This document shows, one piece after another, positions 3,379 to 10,285 of a stretch of DNA of 10,285 nucleotides. The stretch lies in the IMG/VR virus record IMGVR_UViG_2531839374_000022; one strand, 5' to 3'. This DNA comes from a virus. Taxonomy: Duplodnaviria; Heunggongvirae; Uroviricota; Caudoviricetes. The notes beneath the pieces were generated by a model. It saw only the letters and a list, made by a program, of their open reading frames with translations, did not search any database and was not told where the DNA came from. The number at the start of each line of letters is the position of its first letter. Position 1 is the stretch's first letter. Made by a program: the position numbers and the translations under genes.

Positions 3379-3592
3379 GTTTCGCCTCGCCTGAATGATT
3401 CTGTAACTCATATTTGCCCAACAATTCGTCAGCTTCCTGAATAGCTTCTGGTACGCCATTGAGCAGTGACATAACCGCGCCAATCATTAACTTGTCTCTG
3501 TTGCTGGGGCTGGCCCCTTCAAGCCAGAACCCTAAAACAGTCTGAACCTGTTCGATGCGACATTGCGCTTCAATGAGCTGGATGTTGGTCAT
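3371..3592 (-). CDS. Hypothetical small protein (73 aa)
   Basis: Track ORF; ATG at 3592 with GGAGAG Shine-Dalgarno; ATGA start/stop overlap with the upstream ORF (stop at 3589). Confidence 0.55.
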   Translation of the reverse strand: MTNIQLIEAQCRIEQVQTVLGFWLEGASPSNRDKLMIGAVMSLLNGVPEAIQEADELLGKYELQNHSGEAKHE

Positions 3593-4444: not shown

Positions 4445-4710
4445 GGCAGCCTCCTTTGTGTTTAAGGAGTCACCGCCTGAGTTTCCACGCTCTGAAATGG
4501 CGGTGACGTTAGCAGGGGTGGAAATACCGGACACAAAGGAAACCGGCCTACGCGAACGTAGCCCCACTAACGCCACCATTGATACAGTACGGACTAGGCC
4601 GCTGATTTGATGTGCGTAGTGATCGGACACAAAAAAAGACGCTTTCGGCGTCTGTGTCGCCCTGAGTGTGTTCGGGTTTCCACGCCCGGTTGCTGATTTT
4701 GCAGCAACGC
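4445..4710 (-). ncRNA. Candidate structured leader / antisense-RNA immunity region (P4 CI / P1 C4-like): hairpins, direct repeats and a terminator
   Basis: On the minus strand: hairpin GTTGCTG-CAAAAT-CAGCAAC (plus 4689-4708); direct repeat GCGTGGAAAC at plus 4676-4685 and 4481-4490; a complementary TTTCCAC at plus 4518-4524; direct repeat TTTGTGTCCG at plus 4624-4633 and 4528-4537; UUCG-loop hairpin at plus 4548-4561; 9-bp stem GTCACCGCC/GGCGGTGAC (plus 4469-4477 and 4499-4507) enclosing one repeat copy, immediately upstream of the Shine-Dalgarno at 4449-4454. The family assignment is inference. Confidence 0.35.
4631..4653 (-). terminator. Rho-independent terminator (minus strand)
   Basis: Minus strand reads AGACGC-CGAAA-GCGUCU followed by UUUUUUU; 6-bp GC-rich stem at plus 4637-4642 / 4648-4653, then a run of seven T on the minus strand (plus 4631-4637, the last shared with the stem). 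Confidence 0.55.
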
Positions 4711-4940
4711 TTGGACTATAACAGCTTTTCTCTGCTAGGTGGTCATACCAGATAAAACCGTAACCCTTTAAGAGTTTTTCCTGTGCACGGCTCACCATCT
4801 TTTTGTTGAGGGTAAGCGCCTCGCGTACTGGTAACGGAACTCCGGGCGCTGCGGTATCAATATCAGGTTTTATAAGGTTGTAAGGGTTAACATTTGTTAA
4901 CAGGCCAGCCAGATTAAAGGCTTCTTTCTGGGCGGCAGGT

Positions 4941-5938: not shown

Positions 5939-6370
5939 TTATGCGGCGGTGAGATTGTCCGGGTATAGATTGAGAGTGTCGGCAATTTCAGGCTGAGAAA
6001 GTCCCTGATAGCCGCCAGCGTCGGCGTTATGGTTCACAAGCCGAATAACTTTTAGAACGTCACCGCGCCCGGTAAAGCGATAGCGTAAATGTGACCCTAT
6101 CCCGTCGGGGTTCTTTTCGTCTATACGCTCAAGCTGAATATCAAGCCTGCGCTCTAACTCGCTGGCGTAGTTCCTTCCAGACGAAAGGCGGCAATAACGC
6201 AGAATGTCATTTTCTGTCCATCCCTCTATACCAGTACGCAGCATATAGACTCTGGCACGATGCTTTTTCGGTGTGCGCTTTGGTGCTTGAAGGGATTTTG
6301 TAAGGGGCGTAACATCAGATACGCGAATATCTGAATTAGCCGCCTGTAATGGGCGGTTTTTCTTTTCCAT
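5939..6370 (-). CDS. Hypothetical protein (143 aa), translationally coupled to alpA
   Basis: Track ORF; its ATG shares the A of the alpA stop codon (TGATG overlap). Basic N-terminus; no motif recognised. Confidence 0.6.
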   Translation of the reverse strand: MEKKNRPLQAANSDIRVSDVTPLTKSLQAPKRTPKKHRARVYMLRTGIEGWTENDILRYCRLSSGRNYASELERRLDIQLERIDEKNPDGIGSHLRYRFTGRGDVLKVIRLVNHNADAGGYQGLSQPEIADTLNLYPDNLTAA

Positions 6371-6573
6371 CAGGCCACCTTCCCGCGGCGTTCTGCCAGC
6401 CAGTTGTGAATCTCAACCGCATCAAACGCAGTTATTTTTTCTCCCAGCTTTACCGGACGTGGTAGTGAACCGTTTCTTACTTTACGGTCGATGGTGGATA
6501 CACTAACGCCCAGCAATTCAGCCAGGCGGAAGCGTCTGATATAGCCTTTTGTAGGGATAGTGTCGATGTTCAT
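6370..6573 (-). CDS. alpA: AlpA/Vis-family helix-turn-helix regulator (prophage CP4-57-type regulatory protein / excisionase-like)
   Basis: 67 aa; RFRLAELLGVSVSTIDRKVRNGSLPRPVKLGEKITAFDAVEIHNWL fits the AlpA-family helix-turn-helix pattern; GAGG Shine-Dalgarno upstream of the ATG at 6573. Confidence 0.85.
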   Translation of the reverse strand: MNIDTIPTKGYIRRFRLAELLGVSVSTIDRKVRNGSLPRPVKLGEKITAFDAVEIHNWLAERRGKVA

Positions 6574-6612
6574 GATTCCCGTAACCTCTTAGCGATAGTT
6601 GTTGCTTCGTTA

Positions 6613-6617
6613 CGGGT
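6613..6617. repeat. IS2 target-site duplication, left copy (CGGGT)
   Basis: CGGGT immediately outside the IS2 end at 6618; identical pentamer at 7949-7953. IS2 is known to make 5-bp duplications. Confidence 0.8.
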
Positions 6618-6628
6618 TGGATTTGCCC

Positions 6629-7534
6629 CTATATTTCCAGACATCTGTTATCACTTAACCCATTACAAGCCCGCTGCCGCAGATATTCCCGTGGCGAGCG
6701 ATAACCCAGCGCACTATGCGGATGCCATTCGTTATAATGTTCGAACGCCTCTGCAAGGTTCTTTGCTGCCGTTAACCCGTCTGGTTTGGGCATGATACTG
6801 ATGTAGTCACGCTTTATCGTTTTCACGAAGCTCTCTGCTATTCCGTTACTCTCCGGACTCCGCACCGCCGTGTTCTTCGGTTCAAGTCCCAACATCCGGG
6901 CGAACTGGCGTGTTTCATTAGCCCGGTAGCATGAACCATTATCCGTCAGCCACTCCACTGGAGACGACGGAAGATCGTTGCCGAAGCGGCGTTCCACCGC
7001 TCCCAGCATGACGTCCTGTACTGTTTCACTGTTGAAGCCGCCGGTAGTCACCGCCCAGTGCAGTGCCTCACGATCACAGCAGTCCAGCGCGAACGTGACA
7101 CGCAGTCTCTCTCCGTTATCACAGCAGAACTCGAACCCGTCAGAGCACCATCGCTGATTGCTTTCTTTCACGGCCACTCTGCCTGTATGTGCCCGTTTCG
7201 ATGGCGGTACAGCAGGTTTTCGCTCAAGCAACAGCGCATTCTGGCGCATGATCCGGTAAACACGTTTGGCATTGATCGCAGGCATACCATCAAGTTCTGC
7301 CTGTCTGCGAAGCAGCGCCCATACCCGACGATAACCATACGTGGGCAGCTCTCCGATAACATGGTGTATACGGAGAAGCACATCCGTATCATCAGTGTGA
7401 CGACTGCGGCGGCCATCCATCCAGTCATCGGTTCGTCTGAGAATGACGTGCAACTGCGCACGCGACACCCGGAGACAACGGCTGACTAAGCTTACTCCCC
7501 ATCCCCGGGCAATAAGGGCGCGTGCGCTATCCAC
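6629..7534 (-). CDS. insD: IS2 transposase OrfB (InsD), 301 aa
   Basis: Track ORF; protein [34 protein letters not shown]... matches IS2 InsD as remembered; GTG start; expressed as the OrfAB fusion by -1 frameshifting. Confidence 0.95.
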
Positions 7535-7857
7535 TTTTTTGCCCGTCCATATTCAACGGCTTCTTTGAGGAGTTCATTTTCCATCGTTTTCTTGCCGAGC
7601 AGGCGCTGGAGTTCTTTAATCTGCTTCATGGCGGCAGCAAGTTCAGAGGCAGGAACAACCTGTTCTCCGGCGGCCACAGCAGTAAGACTTCCTTCCTGGT
7701 ATTGCTTACGCCAGAGAAATAACTGGCTGGCTGCTACACCATGTTGCCGGGCAACGAGGGAGACCGTCATCCCCGGTTCAAAGCTCTGCTGAACAATTGC
7801 GATCTTTTCCTGTGTGGTACGCCGTCTGCGTTTCTCCGGCCCTAAGACATCAATCAT
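7492..7857 (-). CDS. insC: IS2 transposase OrfA (InsC)
   Basis: Track ORF 7492..7902 has an upstream GTG extension; the canonical InsC start [26 protein letters not shown]... is the ATG at 7857. Confidence 0.95.
7534..7541 (-). other. Probable IS2 -1 programmed ribosomal frameshift site (A6G slippery run) in the insC/insD overlap
   Basis: Minus strand reads GGGCAAAAAAGTGG in the InsC/InsD overlap (plus ccactttttt gcccg at about 7531-7545). Frameshifting at an A6G motif is established for IS2/IS3-family elements; the exact position here is by eye. Confidence 0.5.
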
Positions 7858-7948
7858 CTGTACTCCAATGACTAGTCTAAAAACTAGTATTAAGACTATC
7901 ACTTATTTAAGTGATACTGGTTGTCTGGAGATTCAGGGGGCCAGTCTA

Positions 7949-7953
7949 CGGGT
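7949..7953. repeat. IS2 target-site duplication, right copy (CGGGT)
   Basis: CGGGT immediately outside the IS2 end at 7948, identical to 6613-6617. Confidence 0.8.
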
Positions 7954-7962
7954 ATTTAATGG

Positions 7963-8025
7963 CGTGCACGCTCAAAAAGGAATGATCGTATTTTTTACTA
8001 TCGTGATAGTAAAATTTACTATCAC
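7963..8025. promoter_or_regulatory. Operator-like palindrome cluster between the orphan gene and IS2/alpA
   Basis: Perfect 10-bp palindrome GCGTGCACGC (7963-7972); inverted repeat TACTATC-gt-GATAGTA (7996-8011) with a third half-site TACTATCAC (8017-8025). On the plus strand GTGATAGTAAA / TTTACTATCAC can pair and is followed by CTTTTTTT (8026-8033), so the same sequence could act as a plus-strand terminator. Confidence 0.35.
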
Positions 8026-8870
8026 CTTTTTTTCCCTGCCGTGGTGCGTTCTTCCGGTGTTCTGTCTGTGTCGGCTATGAGTTTCTTCAGGTAATCTATG
8101 GATGGCTCATCATAGCCGCCCCCCAAAAGCGCCCAGTGGTTTATTGTGGCGTTCGCCCATGCTTCGTTGGTTTCCTTCCCGTTCTTCCCTTTACACTCTT
8201 CTGGGTAGTGCCGCTTCACATAAATCAACGCCAAGAGGCAAATTTCGCGCTTTTGCCTGTGGCGCTCTCTGTTTCCGTGCTCAACGTTTTTAACATCCTC
8301 ATAAAGAGCTTGTAAGTTTATGCGAGTTTCGGGGCTGTATATGGGCTGGTTTTTGTCCATGCATTCGCCGATATATTCAACCCACGGCCTTGTTATGTAC
8401 AAATCCTCTACGGATATTTCGTGGAAGGCATGTTTTGTATAATCGAGAAAAAAATAATAATTCGCACTTACGTCTAGTTCTCTTTTTCTGTGTGCGGGGC
8501 TGAATATGCGTGCGGGAGTGTCAATAGAATCAAGCCCTGCGATGTCGAGTATATAGGAGGCGTTAACATGCCATAGCCCAAGCACATGGCAATCTATATG
8601 ATTTACAACGCCTGCCTTAAAGCTTTTTTCGTCCTCTACTTCAGTGATTATGTCGGCAAGTAATAAGCAGTCTTCTTTGACGTCTGGGAATAAAGAGCAA
8701 TTGCGGTAAAGACTCGCGATGCTATGTAATGTGCCGTCGTAGCCGCAAAGGTACGCGCTCAAATATATAGATTCTGCCGCCGCCATAATCAAAAGATCAT
8801 CAATATCTATTTCTAATAATTCGGCTGCTCTGTTAAGCCTGAAAAAAGGGGCGGGTGGTAATTTTTTCAT
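8022..8870 (-). CDS. Hypothetical protein (282 aa), AT-rich orphan cargo gene between the integrase and alpA
   Basis: Track ORF; ATG at 8870 preceded by AGGTGA Shine-Dalgarno. The DNA is visibly more AT-rich than the rest of the window (long A/T runs; exact GC not computed). N-terminus FFRLNRAAELLEIDIDDLL is weakly helix-turn-helix-like; no catalytic motif recognised. Confidence 0.65.
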   Translation of the reverse strand: MKKLPPAPFFRLNRAAELLEIDIDDLLIMAAAESIYLSAYLCGYDGTLHSIASLYRNCSLFPDVKEDCLLLADIITEVEDEKSFKAGVVNHIDCHVLGLWHVNASYILDIAGLDSIDTPARIFSPAHRKRELDVSANYYFFLDYTKHAFHEISVEDLYITRPWVEYIGECMDKNQPIYSPETRINLQALYEDVKNVEHGNRERHRQKREICLLALIYVKRHYPEECKGKNGKETNEAWANATINHWALLGGGYDEPSIDYLKKLIADTDRTPEERTTAGKKR

Positions 8871-8965: not shown

Positions 8966-10285
8966 TTAGTTCGCCCTTCTGAGAGGCGTTACGTTGTAGT
9001 CTTTTCCGCTTTCCAGTGCCACCAGCAGATCAGCCCACTGTGCCAGTGCTGCTTTACGCTCATCAAAATACTGATGGCGGTTATAAATCCCCTCTACGCC
9101 CTTAATGCGATGATTGAGGCATCGTTCCGCCACAACAGGATCAACACCCAACGCTGCTAAATGAGTACGTGCGGTGCGTCGAAAGTCGTGAATCGTGAAA
9201 TTAGGCACATCCGGCATTTCGGCGCGAACCTTAGCCAGTGCTACGGGTAAAGTGCTTTCCTGAATATGTGGGATCATTCTGTTTTGCATCTTCCTGGCCG
9301 GAAGCACCCATGCGCTATTACATGAAAAGGTGTGTAGCTCTCTCAACCATTCAACGGCTGGGGAAGGTAGAGGTATATCAATAGGGTCTCCGTTTTTGCT
9401 GCGTTCTTCCGGCAAATGCCATACCGCACCATCTAAATCAAACTCTTCCCATCGTGCGGCGCATAATTCCATTTTGCGGACGCATAACGCTAACAGTAAT
9501 TTGAACGTGATTTCGTTCTGGCGACTGAATCCCTTAGCCGTGCGCATGGCTTTGAATAGCTGGATTAACTCATCGCGGGTTAACCAGCGGTCACGGGCAG
9601 CTTCTTTCCCTCCGGCGTCTGCCACCTCAAAGGCTGAACAGGGGTTAATCTCTAGCGCGTGCCGTTTGATTCCGTAGTCGAATATGCGGCGCGTCCATCT
9701 CAGCACGTCCGTTGCTATGGTCGGCGCTCCACGGTCAACAATACCTTTCAGCATGTCATCGATATGGCGCGGTTTCACGTCCTCTACCTTCATGCTGCCA
9801 ATGCAGGGGTTTATATCTTTGTCGATACGGCGGCGGAGTATATCGGGGTGCTTCCAGCGCGGGAGGATCTGACGCTCAAAGTATTCAGCGGCAAGCTCTG
9901 AAACGCGCATAGCGTTCTTCTCTGCTTCCATCTTCGCCAGTGCTTCGGTTTTGCGCTTCTGCTTCTCTCCTGCAACGTCATAGCCCAGCGCAACGCGAGC
10001 CGATAGCTCTTTGGCTGTCTCTCTGGCCTTTGATAGTGATAGCTCGCTATACGAACCAATTAGCATGGCGCGGGACTTCCCTGCGAGTTTATAGCGGAAT
10101 CTCCATGTGGGGGTTTTGTCGGCTTCACGGTAACGTAGGTATAAACCGTTACCGTCTGCCCGCCCCTCGAATCGCTCTCCGCTCTTAATCCATGCGCGGA
10201 TCTGCATGTCTGTTAGTTTTGGCATTTTGCGAATATCCAAACTTTGAATAGGGGGTGTACCCAAAGCAATGTACCCAAACCTCAT
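8966..10285 (-). CDS. int: Tyrosine-type site-specific integrase, P4-like family (N-terminal arm-binding domain + catalytic domain)
   Basis: Track ORF of 439 aa reaching the window edge. N-terminal GNGLYLRYREADKTPTWRFRYKLAGKSRAMLIGSY matches the P4-type arm-binding (DUF4102-like) pattern; C-terminal HDFRRTARTHLAALG...NHRIKGVEGIYNRHQY carries the R/H-x-x-R/Y catalytic signature. A more typical start is the internal ATG at 10225 (MPKLTDMQIRAWIK...). Confidence 0.9.
   Translation of the reverse strand: MRFGYIALGTPPIQSLDIRKMPKLTDMQIRAWIKSGERFEGRADGNGLYLRYREADKTPTWRFRYKLAGKSRAMLIGSYSELSLSKARETAKELSARVALGYDVAGEKQKRKTEALAKMEAEKNAMRVSELAAEYFERQILPRWKHPDILRRRIDKDINPCIGSMKVEDVKPRHIDDMLKGIVDRGAPTIATDVLRWTRRIFDYGIKRHALEINPCSAFEVADAGGKEAARDRWLTRDELIQLFKAMRTAKGFSRQNEITFKLLLALCVRKMELCAARWEEFDLDGAVWHLPEERSKNGDPIDIPLPSPAVEWLRELHTFSCNSAWVLPARKMQNRMIPHIQESTLPVALAKVRAEMPDVPNFTIHDFRRTARTHLAALGVDPVVAERCLNHRIKGVEGIYNRHQYFDERKAALAQWADLLVALESGKDYNVTPLRRAN

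Follow-up and report, generated by a model that had tools for sequence, protein, structure and literature searches.

Tandem dyads between gene X and alpA

The stretch of DNA analyzed here, the 10,285-nucleotide IMG/VR virus record IMGVR_UViG_2531839374_000022 (called the window when its full length is meant), is a satellite island of the phage-inducible chromosomal island (PICI) or P4-like kind, with genes on the minus strand in the order int, X, dyad region and alpA. X encodes a protein of 282 amino acids (aa), and this report concerns the dyad region that follows it, a cluster of repeated half-sites that may serve as operators for alpA. Co-oriented int, alpA and primase genes, a Bro/AntA zone and C4 and isrK RNAs place the locus among the satellites (integrase, Phage_AlpA and AntA matched in Pfam, and C4, isrK and int-alpA in Rfam), and the organization of the island agrees with the published one (PMC10111431).

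Three TACTATC/GATAGTA half-sites near the insertion sequence IS2 had been pointed out in a first-pass annotation of the same DNA. They are present as claimed (TACTATC at 7996-8002 and 8017-8023 on the plus strand and, reading GATAGTA on that strand, at 8005-8011), and each extends to a 9-mer, GATAGTAAA/TTTACTATC (7994-8002, 8005-8013 and 8015-8023). The 10.3-kb window contains three exact copies of this 9-mer, all inside the 30 bp from 7994 to 8023. About 0.08 exact copies would be expected by our own arithmetic, so that three within 30 bp are far beyond chance; when up to one mismatch was allowed, 5 matches were found in the window against 1.38 expected. A fourth, degenerate half-site, GATCGTATT, is located at 7984-7992.

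Along the plus strand the half-sites are laid out as GATCGTATT-T-TTTACTATC-GT-GATAGTAAA-A-TTTACTATC, which makes two 19-bp dyads with centers 21 bp apart (Table 1) and, at the same time, a direct repeat of 21 bp (7983-8002 and 8004-8023). Operators are typically dyad-symmetric sites of about 14-20 bp with recognizable half-sites, four of which are seen here. The earlier description had the cluster lying entirely between the stop codon of the gene and IS2. This is not accurate, as the third half-site overlaps the X stop codon (8022-8024) and the T-run next to it is inside the X open reading frame (ORF). Rfam covariance models gave no family match over 7954-8033, even at E-values up to 1.

The perfect 10-bp palindrome GCGTGCACGC, also part of the first description, is present as well and starts one base earlier than claimed, but it is neither above chance level nor conserved. 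It carries no weight alone, because shuffled sequences contain about 9.8 perfect palindromes of 10 bp and the window contains 3. E. coli 042 has a degenerate form of it (GTGTGCATGC) and Enterobacter-type relatives have none. Being at chance frequency and not conserved, it was rejected as an operator. Other short palindromes occupy this spacer position in sister islands, namely TGTATA-TC-TATACA in L010 (intergenic region 3436-3541) and TGTTCATATATGTACA in L011 (intergenic region 3430-3543).

Table 1. Coordinates of the dyads and of the genes and elements around them in the window.
Feature	Position	Strand	Remarks
Integrase gene (int), P4-type	8966-10285	-	Pfam integrase match
Rfam int-alpA RNA motif RF02996	8891-8957	-	60.6 bits
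Gene X, 282 aa	8022-8870	-	No Pfam domain; candidate binder of the dyads
Dyad 1, promoter-distal, GATAGTAAA-A-TTTACTATC	8005-8023		Perfect 19-bp palindrome; overlaps X stop codon
Dyad 2, promoter-proximal, GATCGTATT-T-TTTACTATC	7984-8002		One half perfect, the other 6/9; abuts -35-like hexamer
Plus-strand hairpin with tail CTTTTTTT (8026-8033)	8003-8033	+	Stem 8003-8025, 10 pairs, 3 of them G-C; dG -9.7 kcal/mol
Long inverted repeat, imperfect, with arms of 29 nt between A7 and T5	7974-8033	-	Possible weak bidirectional terminator, lineage-specific
Putative alpA -35, TTCCTT	7977-7982	-	TTCACA or TTCACT in relatives; tentative
10-bp perfect palindrome GCGTGCACGC	7962-7971		Inside the 17-nt promoter spacer; judged incidental
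Putative alpA -10, TTAAAT	7954-7959	-	Directly followed by the IS2 target duplication; tentative
IS2	6618-7948	-	99.9% identity to annotated IS2; target duplication CGGGT at 6613-6617 and 7949-7953
alpA, 67 aa	6370-6573	-	Pfam Phage_AlpA; gene that the sites would control; ATG at 6571-6573

Conservation of the dyads in related islands

For comparison we used related islands from E. coli, Enterobacter and metagenomes, inserted beside yicC or der (some are referred to below by L numbers). The order int, X, alpA was found in every related island retrieved, and the X-alpA intergenic region measures about 75-115 bp in most of them (470 bp in L016 and L017). A dyad lies over the X stop codon or abuts it in all relatives examined (about 12 islands), most of which have a second copy 20-21 bp downstream, beside a conserved -35/-10-like pair. 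In the more distant relatives L029, L030 and L031, too, the X stop codon is covered or directly followed by a dyad, whose half-sites have drifted. Scans of genome contigs returned no relative.

Nine lineages with the same C-terminal class of X, whose X proteins are about 25-58% identical to that of the window, were aligned. The alignment spans both dyads, with 16 invariant columns and a mean column identity of 74%, and the promoter spacer beside the dyads cannot be aligned. The half-site consensus is GAyAnTAAA (dyad GAyAnTAAA-N-TTTAnTrTC), with a near-invariant TAA core and lineage-specific outer bases. Among the outer variants (GATAG, GACAG, GATAC, GGGAG and GGAAG), the last two differ symmetrically in both halves of the dyad. 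Dyad 1, taken as a 19-bp unit, has 87% symmetric cells and three positions that changed on both sides, and dyad 2 is more degenerate (71%). The two units together have two-sided changes at 5 positions, and none of 500 shuffles reached the observed covariation. The first-pass annotation had instead paired the first two half-sites with each other. Their inverted repeat exists, but with 74% symmetric cells and weaker covariation for this inner pairing, the 19-bp dyads fit better across lineages.

The distance between dyad centers, 21 bp in the window and 20-21 bp in the relatives, keeps the two copies in helical phase. A lag of 21 was the top autocorrelation lag in the window, 042, L008, L014 and L015, islands that carry three unrelated repeats (GATAnTAAA, AATTCCG in L014 and AAATTTG in L015). 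The repeats of L015 are three purely direct copies, which are unable to form a hairpin. In islands with a different X, homology to the window starts only at CCCGTAAC, in the leader of alpA; the part upstream of it, including the dyads, travels with X, and CCCGTAAC is likely a recombination junction between islands with different X.

Conservation of the half-sites in related elements had been named at the outset as a check on the cluster, and it was found for sequence, symmetry, phasing and position alike, across diverged islands. The dyads are real and non-random.

Gene X and the choice of a binding partner

X is predicted to have an N-terminal MerR/excisionase-like winged helix-turn-helix (HTH) and, beyond a middle part that varies, a conserved helical domain of winged-helix-like type at the C-terminus. 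Weak winged-helix fold matches for the C-terminal domain are suggestive, not conclusive, and one C-terminal class has a sub-threshold match to HTH_62 (E = 0.01). Sequence searches of X against Pfam, PHROGs and PDB gave no match, Foldseek against PDB found nothing at E-values up to 0.001, and PADLOC reported a non-significant match only (PDC-M48B, E = 0.016).

A profile search collected 127 clusters of the X family at 50% identity. Across the family X is located between a P4-type int and alpA, its C-terminal modules are interchangeable and its middle is hypervariable. Six close clusters, including one from Shigella boydii, are present in the protein database. Among complete E. coli genomes, none contains the X allele of the window at more than 85% nucleotide identity, and 38, including that of strain 042, encode a homolog at 55% amino acid identity. 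Neither X nor the DNA of the candidate operators matched any of 50,697 phage records, and a literature search brought up no publication about these repeats or about the gene that separates int from alpA.

The class of the repeats follows the class of the X C-terminal domain, and there is no such link with the AlpA allele. AlpA has two main HTH alleles. Allele 1 occurs with four repeat classes (those of the window, L010/L011, L013 and L014), and allele 2 occurs with three; conversely, repeat classes A and D are each found with both alleles. AlpA is therefore unlikely to set the specificity, and we rejected it as the specificity partner. It was one of two binders that the first-pass annotation had put forward, and in view of the unrelated repeats found with the same allele an unlikely one.

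Between islands L014 and L015, identity is 92-100% over int and roughly the first 225 codons of X, and again 93-100% from about codon 50 of alpA onward. The two islands differ only in the block in between, made up of the C-terminal part of X, the intergenic repeats and the N-terminal part of alpA. Int, the 143-aa PM1773-like protein and AntA are near-identical in the two islands despite the different repeats, and were rejected as partners for this reason. Integrase arm sites, origin iterons and a packaging site were set aside on position, since 2.3 kb separate the dyads from the int-proximal end and the primase gene is far away. Among the island proteins, the C-terminal domain of X alone is seen to follow the repeat class in these comparisons, which makes X, the other binder proposed at first, the best candidate.

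Promoter-like element, alpA leader and IS2

Dyad 2 abuts a conserved element of the form TTCACw-17-TTwAAT, itself non-canonical. Counting TTCCww as a variant of the first hexamer, the alignment has it, with the 17-nt spacer, in 7 of 9 lineages. A consensus promoter scan of the window did not flag this putative -35/-10 pair. In 042 (L001 4050-4077, plus strand) the scan flagged an antisense TTGTCA-16-TATCAT inside the dyads, pointing into the 3' end of X; the window is without an equivalent, and the call is probably fortuitous.

An allele free of IS2 was found in L009 (a Logan assembly) and L027 (an IMG/VR contig), with an intergenic region identical to that of the window. In gene orientation its order is the X stop codon in dyad 1, dyad 2, TTCCTT, the 17-nt spacer with GCGTGCACGC, TTAAAT and the IS2 target ACCCG, followed by an inverted repeat, CCCGTAAC-N23-GTTACGGG, which encloses the Shine-Dalgarno sequence, and by the ATG of alpA. 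IS2, with its transposase co-oriented with alpA, has thus inserted between the -10-like hexamer and the hairpin of the 5' untranslated region (5'UTR). Because the insertion is right after the -10-like hexamer, the candidate operators and the putative promoter are now uncoupled from alpA. The putative promoter faces into IS2, which leaves alpA reliant on read-through or on an outward promoter of IS2, and the island copy in the window is probably locked or rewired.

The inverted repeat in the alpA 5'UTR (6578-6585 and 6609-6616 in the window, minus strand) is conserved as CCCGTAAC-N17-23-GTTACGGG. Compensatory changes are seen in L013 (CTTGTAAC/GTTACGAG) and in Enterobacter (CCCGTAGC with G-U). 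The repeat could be a translational hairpin or a site of AlpA autoregulation, and CCCGTAAC...GTTACGGG is a better candidate than the dyads for an AlpA-related or RNA-level element.

Hairpins at the dyads

A plus-strand hairpin with a T tail, as described in the first-pass annotation, can indeed be drawn (Table 1), but the terminator role assigned to it is not supported. The T-run (8027-8033) consists of the codons AAA-AAA-AGG (Lys-Lys-Arg) in the conserved basic tail of X, which ends in TTAGKKR, and no T-run follows the dyad in Enterobacter-type islands, L019, L023 and most other relatives. The absence of an evident plus-strand gene, already remarked on at the time, is borne out, so that nothing in the window would feed the hairpin from upstream. 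Terminators are expected 3' of a transcription unit on the same strand and are conserved in structure rather than in sequence; on the plus strand there is no such unit, and it is the sequence that is conserved. The hairpin with CTTTTTTT is terminator-like and looks incidental, a by-product of dyad 1 and of the Lys/Arg codons of X. A plus-strand terminator as a conserved function was therefore rejected, the T-run being coding and not conserved.

The long minus-strand hairpin, A/U-rich and imperfect, has a folding energy of -23.7 kcal/mol and a z-score of -4.5 in the window. The z-scores of the homologous regions are -0.7 in 042, -0.1 in Enterobacter and -1.3 in L015, and no terminator was flagged in the 042 and Enterobacter homologs. 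When the A/U-tract pairs are left out, the RNA prefers the dyad-1 hairpin, which lacks a U-tail; T5 follows the long imperfect hairpin only. The 5' arm of the hairpin overlaps the translated stop codon. Judged from sequence, the conserved A/T core, the 20-21 bp phasing, the direct repeats of L015, the loss of the fold in homologs and the stop-codon overlap favor a DNA-level site over an RNA hairpin. An insulating role may coexist with binding.

Other features of the island

On the 3' side of alpA lie an ORF of 143 aa (PM1773-like), an AntA-family gene, the isrK and C4 immunity RNAs and a primase gene. Primases of the P4 family or of the TOPRIM/DUF927 type are annotated at homologous loci. The RNA immunity module is of P4/P1 type and occupies 4496-4583 and 4632-4721 on the minus strand (C4, 80.3 bits; isrK, 72.1 bits; c4-a1b1 target, 55.1 bits). 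Since this module is present, the island has a second, RNA-based layer of control downstream of alpA.

The Rfam motif RF02996 lies between int and X in the window and in L001, L009, L011, L013, L014, L015, L021, L024 and L026. Wherever it was detected in related islands, it sits 5' of X and not directly 5' of alpA. Its 3' end carries a U-run and AAGG right before the start of X, and it may be an int terminator or a 5' leader of X instead of an alpA element.

A G+C-rich, terminator-like hairpin at 6338-6358 on the plus strand, with a tail to 6368 (AGCCGCCTGTAATGGGCGGTT followed by TTTCTTTT), is antisense to the genes and located where alpA stops and the 143-aa ORF starts. Every relative checked has kept it, the loop differing in Enterobacter, and it has counterparts at L001 3726-3746, L003 5261-5284, L010 3757-3777 and L011 3759-3779. 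It may mark the end of an antisense RNA or be a structure of the sense mRNA at the translational junction of alpA and the 143-aa ORF.

A candidate regulator-operator pair

We infer from these comparisons that a protein would bind the cluster as tandem operators that gate alpA, and that this protein is probably X; we put the chance of this reading at slightly better than even (roughly 0.55). Binding of a repressor or other regulator had been one alternative in the first-pass annotation, and the conserved sequence, phasing and covariation, together with the fixed place beside a promoter-like element, argue for it. Dimers of X would bind cooperatively to both dyads along the same face of the DNA, 21 bp being two helical turns, and would contact them through the swappable C-terminal winged-helix-like domain. 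Bound X would then gate how alpA, whose product is the master activator that sets off excision and replication, is transcribed from what is presumably the conserved promoter-like element. Repression is the likelier direction, in which case X would block RNA polymerase or the contacts of its alpha-subunit, or act as a roadblock to int-X read-through. A helper phage would relieve the repression, with the variable middle domain of X as the possible sensor of the signal.

A wider version of this proposal is that X is the missing master regulator of this Gram-negative PICI family. Its C-terminus and the operator would form an exchangeable, immunity-like cassette that chooses the helper, its hypervariable middle would detect a protein of the helper phage, its N-terminal excisionase-like domain would have a second role on DNA, and IS2 would have broken the switch in the present island. 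We offer this version tentatively, as a possibility with the odds against it.

Several points weigh against X acting on alpA through the dyads. Sites centered near -46 and -67 would fit activation no less well than repression, and their position relative to the start of transcription is itself uncertain, because the putative promoter is non-canonical (its -10 is without the consensus A at position 2) and was not found by the scan. Symmetric covariation is also expected of an RNA hairpin. It is a serious caveat that the co-variation of repeats and X C-terminus could be mere physical linkage, as the two adjoin and overlap. Islands L011 and L012 have a textbook terminator at the equivalent place, and L010 has a hairpin with a short T-run.

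The terminators of these sister islands fit the idea that the dyad acts as an RNA hairpin, part of an insulator or of an intrinsic terminator, possibly a bidirectional one, at which the minus-strand int-X transcript would end, so that alpA is spared its read-through. The A7/T5-flanked fold of the window, with its low z-score, points the same way, and the symmetric covariation is compatible with it. We nevertheless regard this account as unlikely, as the fold is lost and no terminator is flagged in the closest homologs, the preferred dyad-1 hairpin has no U-tail and reaches with its 5' arm into the stop codon, and neither the invariant TAAA-N-TTTA core nor the 20-21 bp direct phasing has a role in a terminator, least of all in L015 with its direct repeats. 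A terminator for rightward transcription on the plus strand, or the relic of a divergent unit similar to P4 Psid, had been the main proposal of the first-pass annotation, on the strength of the hairpin at 8003-8025 and the CTTTTTTT tail. Antisense transcripts may exist, given the conserved plus-strand hairpin at 6338-6358, but the coding nature of the T-run, its absence from other lineages and the lack of an upstream plus-strand gene make this very improbable. The Ogr/Delta-activated late promoters of P2 and P4 have a TGT-N12-ACA dyad near -55. No such box is present at the site; the window has two matches only, both inside IS2 and at chance frequency, and contains no sid, psu or delta genes. 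The analogy with Psid and Ogr/Delta was rejected accordingly, and with it the relic.

The dyads could also be operators for a factor supplied in trans, either an alpA inducer of the helper phage or a host protein. Helper phages induce alpA via a factor that has not been identified (PMC6092414), sites near -46 and -67 would suit an activator of class I or class II type, and the evidence at the DNA level is neutral as to the identity of the binder. For a host factor, however, one would not expect the outer bases and repeat classes to vary among islands in one host species, and to do so along with the C-terminal module of X. As to a phage factor, operator DNA and X are without counterpart in the phage records searched, though a DNA-binding protein of a phage would not need one. 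We consider a factor other than X quite unlikely. The region is A/T-rich (GC 0.42 in 7801-8100), and a chance or low-complexity sequence devoid of function would account for the 10-bp palindrome at chance level, but hardly for three exact 9-mers in 30 bp with none elsewhere, or for a motif, symmetry and phasing conserved across about 12 lineages; this last explanation is scarcely credible.

Comparison with known systems and significance

In temperate phages, the repressors have tandem palindromic sites as operators (OR/OL of lambda, 434 and P22). The present dyads resemble them in length (about 17-19 bp), in a conserved outer half-site and an A/T-rich center, and in the arrangement of one strong and one weaker copy about two helical turns apart beside a promoter. 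As in those phages, operator and DNA-binding domain appear to be exchanged together as an immunity-like module. Unlike the phage operators, the dyads are located upstream of the -35-like element instead of covering the core promoter, and they reach into the 3' end of the gene presumed to encode the regulator; their candidate binder is uncharacterized, about 300 aa long and predicted to have two winged-helix-like domains.

As with Stl or Rpr of Gram-positive PICIs (SaPIs; PMC6092414), a satellite regulator would hold the switch off until relief by the helper, and a variable sensor region could set the helper specificity. Stl is transcribed divergently from its target genes, whereas X points the same way as int and alpA; Stl has no sequence relationship to X, and the controlled gene here would be an activator, alpA. 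Sites of the AlpA/Vis type are found in the same alpA promoter neighborhood of the same kind of element (PMC6092414, PMC10111431), but the repeat class described here is independent of the AlpA allele. The int-alpA motif RF02996 shares with the dyads the islands and the interval from int to alpA, but it is placed between int and X, outside the dyad region. Similarity to intrinsic terminators is limited to a hairpin with a T-run on the plus strand and an A-tract, hairpin and T-tract on the minus strand, with an A/U-rich stem, a coding T-run, the stop-codon overlap and a fold not conserved in homologs as the differences.

In PICIs of Gram-negative bacteria, AlpA acts as a self-activating master activator induced by the helper (PMC6092414). 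Whether these islands have a repressor has been stated to be unclear (PMC6092414), and none is known (PMC6092414, PMC11773190). The island family that is found beside yicC or der in E. coli, Shigella, Enterobacter and relatives carries, between int and alpA, an uncharacterized two-domain gene and class-specific repeats at its 3' end. If X and these repeats are a regulator and its operator, the question of alpA induction would become directly testable. Such a pair would also explain the shuffling of specificity modules between islands, with a junction at the conserved CCCGTAAC, and why the island of the window, with IS2 between promoter and alpA, is probably locked or rewired. X and the dyads thus give satellite biology a concrete candidate for a regulator-operator pair on a question that is still open.

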